A stretch of DNA of 64,000 nt from Octopus vulgaris (taxonomy: Eukaryota). Shown in pieces: positions 20,401 to 37,872 of the stretch (the first letter of the stretch is position 1; the number at the start of each line of letters is the position of its first letter). Made by a program: the position numbers and the translations under genes. The notes under the pieces were generated by a model, which was given only the letters and a program-made list of their open reading frames with translations, was not told the origin of the DNA and did no database searches. The DNA is taken from NCBI GenBank assembly GCA_951406725.2, contig OX597822.1:98208001-98272000 (forward strand), read 5' to 3'.

Positions 20401-20915
20401 AAAGGTTACTTTCTTAGATGCAGCACGGACTTTGTCAGTGAACAGGTCGCGGATTTTAGCGACGAAAATATTTTGACAAATTAAACTTAAATGTTGGAGT
20501 GAATCAAACGGCTTTTGTGTGTTTCTTAAATGGCTTATAAACACCTTCCACGCTGCAATTGTTTTCGTTTCACCACACGATCTCAGATCAAATTACTTGC
20601 TATGCGAGTACATCTCCGTAATATATATATATATATATATATATATATATATATATATATATTTATATACATATATATACATACATATATATATACATAC
20701 ATATATATACACATACATATATATACACATACATATATATACACATACATATATATACACATACATATATATACACATACATATATATACATACATACAT
20801 ATATATAAATACATATATATACATACATATATATATACATACATATATATATATACATACATATATATACATACATACATACATATATATACATACATAC
20901 ATACATATATATACA

Positions 20916-21207
20916 TTGGGTTTCAGAGGACCACAGCTCTTTAACATCCTCCCTAAATGCCTGAGAGACTTACATGGTGTGGATGTGGGTTTCTTTAAAA
21001 CTAAACTGGATCTCTTCTTGTTGGGAGTCCCAGATGAGGCTACCTCACGACAGGAGACGCGGATGCGGGCAGCAGCATCGAACTTCCTTGTTGATCAAGT
21101 GCCACGTATCAGAGGTGGATTCACAAATTAGTGTAGCTCATTCAGCGGTGGTGCCCCAGCATGGCCGCGGCCTTCAGGCTAAAACATTTTTAATGATTTA
21201 ATGATTT
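20916..21207 (+). mobile_element. CR1-clade LINE family A, severely 5'-truncated copy (about 290 bp), (TTTAATGA)n tail
   Basis: Matches 34859-35150 with about 6 substitutions outside the tail; microsatellite on both sides. Confidence 0.95.
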
Positions 21208-21904
21208 ATACATATATATACATACATACATATATATACATACATACATATATATACATATACATACATATACATATACATACATACATATATATATACA
21301 TATATATATACATATACATACATATACATATACATACATACATATACATACATACATATATATATATACATACATACATACATATACATATACATACATA
21401 CATACATATATACATACATACATATACATACATACATACATACATATATACATACATACATATATACATACATATATACATACATACATATATACATACA
21501 TACATACATACATACATACATACATACATATATACATACATATATACATACATACATATATACATACATATATACATACATACATATATACATACATACA
21601 TATACATACATACATATATACATACATACATATATACATATATACATACATACATACATATATACAGACATACATATATACAGACATACATATATACAGA
21701 CATACATATATATATATACATACATATATATATATACATACATATATACTTACATATATATATACATACATATATATATACATACATATATATATACATA
21801 TATATATACATATATATATACATATATATATATATATACATACATAAATATATATATATACATACATAAATATATATATATACATACATATATATATATA
21901 CATA

Positions 21905-32117: not shown

Positions 32118-35074
32118 ATGTAGGAGGGCTGCTGCGCGGAAACTGTAAAAAGAAAATTTCATTCCTGAGAGACCTTGTGACATGCAATCAAGCTATATGC
32201 ATGGCACTCACAGAAACGCATCTTGAACCCGATATAGGTGATGCAGAAATACACATGCCGCAATATGCAGTCATACGCACAGATAGAAAAGGGAGGAGCC
32301 ATGGTGGAGTTGCAATGTACATCCGAGATGACCTCACGCCCCAGGTCCTGCTGTCATATTCAAACTCAGTATGTGAAACTCAAATTGTACACATAAGACA
32401 ACTGAATATCGTCATATGCACTACATATCGCCCACCAGACGCCCCAAAACACTCAGGCATGTTTGAAGACTGCCTAACAAAAATAGGAGAAGTCCTCACC
32501 AACCTTGAACAGCACAACAGTGTATTCTTCATGGGTGACTTTAACCTCCCCAATGTGGAATGGCCTGGGGGGCAGATGCTCCCAGGGATGACACACCATC
32601 AGCAGGCACAGGTGGAGTCCCTGCTCCATCTCACAAATACCTCTTTCATGGAGCAAATAGTTCTGCAACCAACAAGGGCAGATAATATACTGGATCTCTG
32701 CTTTACAAACAATATGGATATTATCCATAATGTTAATGTGATGCCGACAATGATCTCGGATCACAACATAATAGAGCTGTCTATGTATGGAACAAAAGCC
32801 CCCGCAGACACACAGCCTATACGAAGCACCCACCATCTCTCCAACTTAAACTTTCATAAAGCCAACTGGAAGTCGATTGAGAAAGAGATCCTCAAACAGG
32901 ATTGGCCTGAATGTCTCTCCACACCGGACATAAACATGAAACACAAACACTTCATGTCCATAATACAAGCCATATGTGACAAATATGTCCCAATGTGCAG
33001 GGCCAGCACACACAAGAATAAAAACAGGATCCCTAGAGAAAGGAGGATTCTTATGAGACGACGGACAAGGATTGCAAACCGCCTGAGCAAGCACACCAAA
33101 AGTGGTGAGAAGTCTCGGCTCGAAAGAATGCTAATGGAAACTGAGAAAAGTCTACATCAGTCCCATGAAAAGGAGAGAGCAGATAAAGAAGCTTGGGTAA
33201 TAGAAAATATAAAATCAAACCCTAAAGCTTTCTTTAAGTTTGCCAAAGAGACAGCCACAGTGCACCAGAGAATAGGACCTCTCTTCCAAAAAGATGGCTC
33301 TCTCACAGGAAATCCCACGAGGATAAGTGAAATACTGAACGAACAGTTCCAAAGTGTGTTCACTACACCTCTAGGACACAGGCAAGTAAACAACCCAGAA
33401 GAATTCTTTGCCACTTTACCTGCGGCCAAAGAGACAAAAATTGAGTACATCAACATCGAAGATGATGATATCACACTAGCCATTGATGAGATTGACACAA
33501 ACTCAGCTGCTGGACCTGATGGATTCCCAGCGATCCTTCTCAAATCGTGCAAACGAGCCCTTGCAAAACCGCTACAGCTTCTTTTTCAGAGCTTTCTTGC
33601 AAGTGGTAAGCTCCCAGTCAAACTGAAAGAGGGGGTAATATGCCCTATCCATAAGGGAGGTAGCAGAGCAGATGCTAAAAATTATAGGCCTATCTCTCTG
33701 ACCTCACACATCAGCAAAGTCATGGAACGAATAGTCCGTAAGAAACTAATCATGTTCCTTGAAGAAAATGACTTACTGTCTGACACCCAGCATGGATTTC
33801 GACCAGGTAGAGGCTGCCTAACACAGCTCCTGCAACACTATGACTGGGTGTTGAAACAGCTACTAAATGGCTCAAATGTGGATGTAATATATCTTGACTT
33901 TGCAAAAGCCTTTGATAAAGTCGACCATGGTATGATCTGTCACAAACTGCGTGGTCTCGGCATAGGCGGGAAACTTGGAGAGTGGCTGCACAACTTCCTA
34001 AAAGACAGAAAACAGGCAGTTGTGAGCAATGGAGCCACCTCCAGGGAAACGCAAATAACAAGCGGTGTCCCACAGGGCACTGTCTTGGGGCCACTGATGT
34101 TCATAGTGGCCCTTTCAGACATGCCTTCAGTTGCTACGATGACCACCCTTGCTAGCTATGCAGATGACACAAAAGTCTCCCACGCAATACAAAACCCTGA
34201 AAATATTGCGCATCTGCAACATGAGCTGGACACAATATACAGGTGGGCTGAGGACAACAACATGCAGTTTAATGCAGGTAAGTTCCAGGCCCTGCGCTAC
34301 TGGCACACAAAGGTAAATGACGTGAAGACTGGATACACTGGCCCAGGAAGAATTGCAATCCCTGAGTCAAAATCAGTGCGTGACCTGGGCATTGACATGA
34401 GCAATGATGCATCTTTCCAAATGCATATTGCTAATCTGGTGATAAAATGCAGACGGCTAGCTGGATGGATTCTCCGAACTTTCAGAACAAGAGAGAAGGA
34501 GACACTGATGGTCCTATGGAAAACATTTGTCCTCAGCCGCTTGGACTACTGCTCCCAACTTTGGTCACCACACAATATAAAACAAACAGCAGAACTCGAA
34601 GCAACTCAGAGAAGCTACACAAAGAAAATCGTCTCAATGCAAAATGTCAGCTACTGGGAAAGACTGAAGGTATTAAACCTCTTCTCCCTGGAGCGGAGGC
34701 GGGAGAGATATGCAGTGATATACATCTGGAAAATCCTGGAGGGTCTCGTCCCAAACTTTGGCATTCAAAGTTACTCCAACCGCAGAACGGGGCGCCGCTG
34801 CGTGGTGCCAAGGATTCCAACATCACCATCAAAATACAGGTCCAGATACTGCAACAGCTTGGGTTTCAGAGGACCACAGCTCTTTAACATCCTCCCTAAA
34901 TGCCTGAGAGACTTACATGGTGTGGATGTGGGTTTCTTTAAAACTAAACTGGATCTCTTCTTGTTGGGAGTCCCAGATGAACCTACCTCACGACAGGAGA
35001 CACGGATGCGGGCAGCAGCATCGAACTCCCTTGTTGATCAAGTGCCACGTATCAGAGGTGGATTCACAAACTAG
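32063..35074 (+). CDS. LINE family A ORF2: APE endonuclease + reverse transcriptase, intact (1003 aa from the ATG; frame open from 31955)
   Basis: EN motifs [34 protein letters not shown] motifs [38 protein letters not shown]1-like C-terminus [10 protein letters not shown]...GPQLFNILP. Confidence 0.96.
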
Positions 35075-35150
35075 TGTAGCTCATTCAGCGGTGGTGCCCC
35101 AGCATGGCCGCGGCCTTCGGGCTAAAACATTTTTAAGGATTTAAGGATTT

Positions 35151-37872
35151 ATATATATACATACATATATATATACATACATATATACATACATATATAC
35201 ATACATATATATACACATATATATACATACATATATATATACATACATATATACATACATATATCCATACATACATATATACATACATATATACATACAT
35301 ACATACATACATACATATATACATATATACATACATATATACATATATACATACATATATACATATATATATATATATATATATATATATACATACATAT
35401 ATACATATATATATATATATATATATATATATATATACATACATACATATATATATATATATATACATATATATATACATACATACATACATATATACAT
35501 ACATACATATATACAAAAATACATATATATATATATATATATATACAAACATACATATATACAAAAATACATATATATATACATGTATATATACATGCAT
35601 GCATACATGTATATATGCATACATACATATATATACATACATACATATATATACATACATACATATATATACATACATACATACATACATACATACATAC
35701 ATATATATATACATACATACATATATATATATACACATGCATACATATATATATACATACATACATATATATATACACATGCATACATATATATATACAT
35801 ATATACATACATACATATATATACATACATACATATATATACACAAACATATATATATGCATACATATATATACACAAACATATATATATATATACATAC
35901 ATATATATACACAAACATATATATATACATACATATATATACACAAACATATATATATATATACATACATATATATACACAAACATATATATATATATAC
36001 ATACATATATATACACAAACATATATATATATACATACATATATATATATATACATACATATATATATATATATATACATACATACATATATATACATAC
36101 ATACATATATATACATACATATATATATATACATACATATATATATATACATACATATATATATATACATACATACATATATACATACATACATATATAT
36201 ATATATACATACATATATATATATATACATACATATATACATACATATATATATATATACATACATATATACATATATACATACATACATATATACATAC
36301 ATATATATATATACATACATATATATATATACATATATATATACATACATACATATATATATATACATACATACATATATATATATACATACATACATAT
36401 ATCTACATACATACATATATATATATACATACATATATATACATATATATATATATATACATACATATATATATATATATATATATATATATATATACAT
36501 ACATACATATATATATACATACATACATATATATATATACATACATACATATATATACATACATATATATATATACATACATATATATATATATATACAT
36601 ACATATATATATATACATACATACATATATATACATACATACATATATATATATATACATACATATATATATATATACATACATATATATATATACATAC
36701 ATACATATATATACATACATACATATATATATATACATACATATATATATATACATACATATATATATATACATACATATATATAATACATACATACATA
36801 TATATAGGTAAACAGTAAAAATAATTACAGACATGGACAAGAACATGAAACGCCACAGAGATGACACAAGAACCACAGGACGGGACATTCGAAGCCCTCA
36901 GTCATCAGTCAAGAACCAGATCATCTTAGCAATTTCGGCTGATTAATCTTGAGATTGCTCCGATATGGGCAGCCCGCCACGGGAAATCTAAGCCAAGTGC
37001 ATTAGATCCCCTGGAAGAAAGCTTCGAATGTATACAACACGAGGACGGAAAACGAACGAAGTACACGAACAAAAATACAGATATACATACATATATATAT
37101 ATACATACATATATATATACATACATATATATATATACATACATACATATATACATACATACATATATATATACATACATACATACATATATATATATAC
37201 ATACATATATATATATACATACATATATATATATACATACATATATATATATACATACATATATATATACATACATATATATATATACATACATACATAT
37301 ATACATACATACATACATATACATACATACATACATATATATATACATACATACATACATATATATATATACATACATATATATATATACATACATACAT
37401 ATATACATACATACATATATACATACATACATATATACATACATACATACATATATTTATATACATATATATACATACATATACATATTTATATACATAT
37501 ATATACATACATATACATATTTATATACATATATATACATACATATACATATTTATATACATATATATATATATATACATACATATATATATATATATAT
37601 ATATATATACATATATATATACATACATATACATATATATATATATATACATACATATACATATATATATACATATATATATATATACATACATATACAT
37701 ATATATATACATATATATATATATACATACATATACATATATATATACATATATATATATACATATATATATACATACATATATACAACATATATATACA
37801 TATATATATATACATATATATATATACATACATACATATATACAACATATATATATATATATATATATACAT
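35151..37872 (+). repeat. (TA)n/(CATA)n field, interrupted by a unique island at 36807-37080
   Basis: Direct reading. Confidence 0.97.

Follow-up and report, generated by a model that had tools for sequence, protein, structure and literature searches.

Insertion into microsatellites has been described for several long interspersed nuclear elements (LINEs), namely Waldo, Mino, Kibi, Koshi and Dong, and the name CR1 does not occur in PMC3812793, which lists them. Waldo and Mino, of the R1 clade, enter ACAY and AC repeats, respectively, and Kibi and Koshi, of the Tx1 clade, enter TC and TTC repeats (PMC3812793, PMC4494074); more generally, target-specific LINEs come mostly from the early-branching, Tx1 and R1 groups (PMC4640811). 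Here, we analyzed a stretch of 64,000 nt of contig OX597822.1 of Octopus vulgaris (hereafter the window), in which five LINE copies of three CR1 families, A, B and C, lie in (TA)n/(CATA)n repeats (c1 to c5, within positions 20916-35150). Throughout the genome, young copies of these families sit in TA runs about 20 times above chance, a strong preference rather than a strict specificity for TA arrays, which we attribute with a probability of roughly 0.8 to targeting encoded by the elements themselves. Like Waldo, Mino, Kibi and Koshi, they encode an apurinic/apyrimidinic-type endonuclease (APE) and a reverse transcriptase (RT) and enter a simple repeat, but they differ from these elements in their clade, in the TA repeat and in a looser specificity (78%), which is still far over the criterion of 20% of flanks applied to target preference in PMC4494074.

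An earlier note on this DNA, made from its letters alone, had stated that five of five copies, from three families, are inserted in this microsatellite, and the window bears this out. All ten junctions are TA/CATA repeat, with an ambiguity of 1-2 nt, and the copies belong to family B (c1 and c5, 97% nucleotide identity), family A (c2 and c3, 93%) and family C (c4), A and B being 75% identical. Each family has a tail of its own, as claimed: (TTTAAGGA)n; (TCAA)n or (TCAAAA)n; (AAGTTATTCT)n. All five are 5'-truncated relative to a full length of ~4.7-5.6 kb; c3 retains an open reading frame 1 (ORF1) remnant with a CCCH finger (~25377-25445) and an endonuclease-RT region broken by two 1-nt deletions, both frameshifting, c4 has an open RT frame (28882-30888) and is 99.9% identical to a full-length copy, and the ORF1 remnant of c5 extends to 32117. 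The six arrays within 20621-37870 are C-rich on the plus strand and nearly devoid of G, a polarity that is indeed maintained around the inverted copy c2, with 156 C and 0 G on its 5' side (23235-24741) and 112 C and 3 G on its 3' side (21208-21904). Microsatellite does make up a large share of the window, TA-array positions accounting for 13.1%; given this share, five of five copies in TA arrays correspond to p ~ 4e-5 if the insertions are independent.

The comparison proposed in the earlier note, of 3' flanks with the genomic TA fraction and with other LINE clades, was performed by searching the genome with element-only 3' ends. The candidate hits numbered 1675 for B, 97 for A and 1391 for C, and for each family 40 hits were scored, of which the first 30 were used; because of ties, the B and C hits are mostly on contigs C1-C4. 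Once two copies from the window and an apparent duplicate had been removed, 87 copies remained; an older sister family, E, was excluded since its 3' ends were mostly outside the stretches or rearranged. The score was the share of dinucleotide steps that are TA or AT within the 30 nt past the tail, with a cut-off of 0.6 that was fixed after viewing the flanks of A, B, C and a control family, RTE1, and before retrieving those of D, RTE2 and a short interspersed nuclear element (SINE), presented below; the background was taken from 40 evenly chosen 10-kb stretches (796,800 overlapping positions). A TA array directly follows the tail in 68 of the 87 young copies (78%; B 23/30, A 18/28, C 27/29) against 4.0% of background positions, so that most copies do not have unique flanks. 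The 5' flank lies in an array for at least 60 of the 87 (eight full-length 5' ends being unresolved and one masked), and 77 have an array on either flank. These copies are 97-100% identical to those of the window. CA, GA, TAA and other short repeats flank only 3/87, against a background of 4.1%.

Control families do not share this behavior equally. Family D, also of the CR1 clade, came from a Pfam search and is represented by 24 of the first 30 loci and by 20 further loci chosen because their 949-aa frame is intact. Its copies are 97-99.97% identical and have a (TTA)n tail that itself contains TA; the family is TA-flanked in 4/44 cases, far below A, B and C (p=1e-14) and not above background (p=0.10). 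The older family RTE1 gives 1/25, the single match being (TAA)n, with 5/30 copies lacking a recognisable end, and the young family RTE2 gives 8/29, the query copy and a (TTA)n array being among the eight, again below A, B and C (p=2e-6). RTE2 copies (L128, L161-L190) carry a PHD/C1-like finger after the RT, a (GAT)n tail and a mild TA bias. Because D, RTE1 and the other microsatellites are not enriched, the pattern of A, B and C does not result from microsatellite tolerance or accessibility alone; the alternative of general accessibility or selective tolerance raised in the earlier note is thus insufficient by itself, although a mild AT bias extends to RTE2, and part of the TA effect is therefore not unique to the A/B/C lineage. 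The RTE copy at 55461, which had been placed in (TA)n, does adjoin a TA array at its 5' end, but its 3' side holds just ~12 bp of AT (score 0.45).

That the repeats pre-date the insertions, as had been proposed from the window, is supported by interrupted array variants, which are concordant across the two flanks at 25 loci and discordant at 5 (p=1.6e-4). Relative to the element, 13 of the concordant variants are G-type and 12 are C-type, and since both orientations are seen, the array is not an element tail. Target duplications in long arrays are indistinguishable from periodicity; at one locus (L012), a duplication of 14-15 bp includes or ends in non-repeat letters. An empty-site comparison at the same locus, with contigs of four runs, showed no empty allele: it gave a 330-bp skip that is no evidence of one, since just 20 letters extend past it on one side and the two flanks are repetitive. 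The arrays were most probably present before the insertions.

The assignment of the three families to the CR1 clade made in the earlier note was examined through a published tree-based table used as a proxy (PMC10294476). By eye against the supplementary alignment of that study, the RTs are identical to, or a few residues off, those of Octopus sinensis clusters (O.sinensis_14/65 for B, 135/104 for A, 33/83 for C and 6/26/97 for D), all of which are tabulated there as Jockey / CR1 / CR1 (Table S7, Martelossi et al. 2023, PMC10294476). The RTs of A and B are 78% identical, those of A/B and C 43%, and those of A, B and C are 32-40% identical to that of D. In an RT tree of 30 sequences, which contained no named CR1 references and returned long-branch warnings, A/B/C and D stand apart from RTE with a support of 100/100, and a 94/94 branch has D on one side and A, B and C together with 22 unnamed relatives on the other. 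Families A, B and C are one CR1 sub-lineage, and the preference concerns that sub-lineage and not octopus CR1 overall. Their ORF2 matches Exo_endo_phos_2 and RVT_1 above the Pfam cut-off and nothing else, with an N-terminal APE followed by the RT and no RNase H, and two CR1 traits, a 3' tail of short tandem repeats and frequent 5' truncation, are present. Membership of R1, Tx1 or R4 is contradicted by the RT placement, the endonuclease being moreover of the APE type and not a restriction-like endonuclease (RLE). The nearest named relative of ORF2 is from Argonauta hians (62%), and none of the 80 loci of a metagenome scan had the C-terminal motif of the A/B/C lineage.

Several observations weigh against targeting encoded by the elements. 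Nineteen of the 87 copies fall under the array score, several of them in unique DNA, and the A2 subfamily, to which c2 belongs, is TA-flanked in 14/28 copies by script and 17/28 by eye (its own copy and one unparsed copy dropped). Array variants are discordant at 5 of the 30 scorable loci; the hairpin region of the endonuclease does not differ in length between A, B and the non-targeting D, so that no targeting feature is visible there. RTE2 remains above background without its query copy (7/28, p ~ 1e-4). Finally, arrays at insertions are longer than background arrays (median 51 vs 35 bp, p=6e-4), which could stem from structure, duplication or later expansion. The earlier suggestion of an (AT)n-targeting CR1 lineage hence stands as a strong preference of A, B and C, while strictness does not, in view of the copies outside arrays and of the weaker TA bias in one RTE family.

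The length of the arrays is also what would be expected if fragile TA repeats, folded into cruciforms and cut by host nucleases, primed any retroelement without element-encoded targeting. Cleavage of TA-repeat cruciforms by ERCC1-ERCC4 is documented in human cells (PMC12018271), Naiad Penelope elements prefer (TA)n (PMC8557442) and RTE2 is enriched ~6-7 fold, but the equally young family D and RTE1 are not enriched, the rate of RTE2 equals that of a 3-nt ATA priming preference (28%), and many insertions occupy arrays of just 12-30 bp, making this explanation improbable in our view. Slightly more doubtful again is priming by microhomology, whereby the RNA tail would anneal best to nicked AT-alternating DNA and no special nicking would be needed: every tail does contain AT or TA, the junction ambiguity is 1-3 nt and the bias is weaker for the SINE, whose tail is A-rich, but the (TTA)n tail of D offers equal TA/AT pairing with no enrichment, three different tails share one target, and preferences of 1-3 nt reach 13-28% at most.

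Two further explanations appear very improbable, to the same degree. Insertion might be random, with selection retaining only the copies in harmless microsatellite DNA; the arrays are presumably neutral and the window is repeat-rich, but the copies are nearly identical to those of the window, CA, GA and TAA arrays, although just as harmless, contain very few of them, family D has retained copies of 3-5 kb in unique DNA, and A/B/C copies of > 2.5 kb are still TA-flanked in 35/43 cases (hand count). Alternatively, the element itself might make (TA)n, by tail synthesis or by later tail-seeded expansion, LINE tails being a known source of microsatellites (PMC3812793) and empty sites not having been observed; against this, arrays also occur at the 5' truncation points, interrupted variants match across the insertion in both orientations, and the polarity in the window is unchanged around the inverted copy.

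Regarding the target recognised by the A/B/C elements, AT directly follows the tail in 76/87 junctions, and 20/28 family A junctions read C/AT (the slash marking the junction), which fits a primer ending in T, and hence, we infer, a nick at TpA. The background probability of an array is 13.5% given AT, 28% given ATA, 45% given ATAT, 68% given ATATAT and 79% given (AT)4. Since AT alone gives 13.5%, a dinucleotide preference cannot yield 78%; the RTE2 rate fits a 3-nt ATA preference, and A, B and C would need 6-8 bp or more. In the mechanism that we propose, the A/B/C machinery would select at least 6-8 bp of alternating AT in pre-existing arrays, the APE would nick a TpA step at which reverse transcription would be primed, the RNA tail would pair over 1-3 nt with the nicked strand, a target duplication of probably ~14 bp would result, and a predicted Myb/SANT domain of the ORF1 protein (ORF1p) might add to the targeting in cis. 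The catalytic motifs of the endonuclease are intact in A, B, C and D. Since TA remains on either side of every new copy, long arrays would gather successive copies, hence the cluster of five in the window. Several copies of the lineage per TA array are also found elsewhere (L027, L059, L052/L020), head to head or tail to tail, and such multi-copy arrays include another C-like family, with 84% identity to c4.

The N-terminus of ORF1 in full-length A, B, C and E copies displays a Trp-containing three-helix motif followed by one or two CCCH fingers. An AlphaFold2 (AF2) model of this region, based on nine copies (predicted local distance difference test, pLDDT, 85.6), has MYB, GARP and GT-1 domains as its best structural matches (Z 8.3, root-mean-square deviation 2.2, 58 aligned); these domains top both fold searches, the Foldseek E being not significant. 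A profile search retrieved 34 proteins, and two of the 12 scanned, P0204 and P0206, score above the Pfam cut-off as single domains; among the scanned relatives, two combine a Myb match with CCCH-like matches or have CCCH alone. An atlas search returned Myb/SANT clusters at 0.83-0.88, a lead only; the ORF1 alignment had no match in a PDB sequence search, and the fold predicted for the family C ORF1 from a single sequence (pLDDT 59), which had no structural match, was uninformative. Such a domain is called into question by Pfam Myb_DNA-bind_4 matches that are weak (E 2e-4 to 0.015, below cut-off) and by a Z close to the level reached by common helical folds. Taken together, the models predict that ORF1 of A, B and C carries a Myb/SANT domain, a three-helix fold with a conserved Trp. 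Its contribution to targeting in cis is possible, at somewhat less than even odds. Still more tentatively, the CR1 sub-lineage may have gained an ORF1p Myb/SANT domain that steers an ordinary APE-RT protein to (TA)n, in which case ORF1 and not the endonuclease would choose the target, and microsatellite targeting would have arisen independently for a fourth time among LINEs.

Among CR1-group elements, ORF1 is modular and does not define the clade. The ORF1 of A, B and C fits none of the described CR1 types (PHD, RRM, esterase, CCHC) and gave only Myb_DNA-bind_4 and CCCH-type matches. The ORF1 of D, with no Myb motif, shows by eye Cys residues in a PHD-like pattern and a C-terminal part that resembles an RRM, neither having Pfam support; it thus resembles the canonical types (PMC4120745, in whose main text 'CCCH' has 0 occurrences), from which A, B and C differ by their Myb/SANT and CCCH architecture. 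Myb/SANT domains are found in R4/Dong (PMC7998251); however, R4/Dong (TAA) and R2 use an RLE and carry Myb in the RT protein, whereas A, B and C have an APE and a predicted Myb in ORF1.

The two frames of the A, B and C elements overlap at a conserved heptamer, T TTT TTG/TTA, which ORF1 reads as SFL, ORF2 lying in the -1 frame; such sites are found in c5 (Table 1), at window positions 25607-25612 and at L226, L239 and L258. Six T were present in 12/12 C and 6/8 A copies matched. The heptamer is a possible -1 ribosomal frameshift site, kept though the A/B and C RTs are only 43% identical; downstream of it, no strong hairpin or RNA structure was found, and ORF2 also has its own Met. The 5' untranslated region (UTR) of family A (L239, L247, L250) contains AT-rich tandem repeats, and families B and D begin with a similar AAGATGGCG motif.

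Two SINEs resemble the 3' ends of these LINEs. A very young SINE with a tRNA head (L439-L468, L499-L515), of ~210 bp and with copies ~100% identical, terminates with the 3' UTR of family A; searched genome-wide with the SINE body only, it is TA-flanked in 16/39 cases, above D (p=8e-4) and below the A/B/C LINEs (p=8e-5). If it moves in trans on the ORF2 protein (ORF2p), as we presume, then ORF2p would hold part of the preference and ORF1p or the tail would add the rest in cis. The intermediate rate is suggestive of such a split, the partner LINE being putative and the SINE tail different. A very abundant older SINE (L132, L145, L150 and others; window 2189-2640) has an internal TA/TG repeat and an end like the A/B 3' UTR.

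The features of the window are collected in Table 1. Short non-coding inserts interrupt its TA arrays at 17541-17751, 24742-24831 and 36806-37080, the first containing a long inverted repeat, and related pieces are also found in other arrays. A rhodopsin-family G protein-coupled receptor (GPCR) exon (7tm_1, E 6e-21) lies at 40478-40948 on the minus strand; the LINE cluster is 5 kb downstream of it and possibly intronic. A 150-aa frame at 61141-61593 on the plus strand, which had no match in a Pfam scan, resembles a fragment of a hAT/Buster-type transposase.

Table 1. LINE copies, TA/CATA arrays and coding features of the window
Feature	Positions	Strand	Remark
(TA)n/(CATA)n array, 5' flank of c1	20621..20915	.	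39 C, 0 G
c1, 292-bp 5'-truncated family B copy, tail 21188-21207	20916..21207	+	97% to c5
TA/CATA array, c1-c2 interval	21208..21904	.	
c2, inverted copy of family A (A2 subfamily), 1.33 kb, with RT and 3' end	21905..23234	-	RT matches O.sinensis_104_LINE
1.8-kb TA/CATA array, 90-bp non-repeat insert 24742-24831	23235..25010	.	
c3, 3.8-kb family A copy, (TCAA)n tail 28786-28803	25011..28803	+	RT matches O.sinensis_135_LINE
77-bp TA/CATA spacer, c3-c4	28804..28880	.	
c4, 2.1-kb family C copy, tail 30961-30975	28881..30975	+	RT matches O.sinensis_33_LINE
TA/CATA array, c4-c5 interval	30976..31502	.	
c5, 3.65-kb family B copy, tail 35131-35150	31503..35150	+	RT matches O.sinensis_14/65_LINE
CCCH zinc finger, c5 ORF1	31704..31772	+	weak Pfam match, zf-CCCH E 7e-4, just under cut-off
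T TTT TTG heptamer at ORF2 start in -1 frame of ORF1	31964..31970	+	possible frameshift site
c5 ORF2, open 1039 aa: APE endonuclease ~32111-32767, RT ~33647-34366	31955..35074	+	
2.7-kb TA/CATA array, 3' flank of c5, 275-bp insert 36806-37080	35151..37870	.	
RTE copy, control family RTE1, outside CR1 lineage	55461..57050	+	

The same target repeat, (TA)n, is used by Naiad Penelope-like elements (PMC8557442) and by the rice Micron miniature inverted-repeat transposable elements (PMC3812793), but Naiads are GIY-YIG retroelements and Micron elements are DNA transposons, with machinery unrelated to that of A, B and C. The families themselves correspond to octopus CR1 clusters published by Martelossi et al. 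2023 (PMC10294476), in the searched passages of which there is no analysis of insertion sites, and 13 active CR1 families have been counted in O. vulgaris in a study in whose searchable text the word 'target' has no occurrence (PMC13282606). Literature searches returned no (TA)n-targeting CR1 and no Myb-bearing CR1 ORF1, although Repbase or Dfam notes could still record one; a term search of PMC9115989, PMC12220107, PMC11203168, PMC13708176, PMC3124438 and PMC3747384 returned nothing on a TA-targeting CR1. The families and the kind of behavior are thus known, and what is new is the combination of clade and target, the TA preference and the ORF1 architecture.

The presence in one genome of a TA-seeking CR1 sub-lineage beside an equally old CR1 family that does not seek TA provides a natural pair for understanding how APE-type LINEs gain a target preference. 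The preference of A, B and C accounts for the LINE clusters in octopus TA arrays, and it comes with a warning that short-read assemblies lose such copies at TA breaks. These elements exemplify a retrotransposon lineage with a built-in bias toward non-coding repeats.

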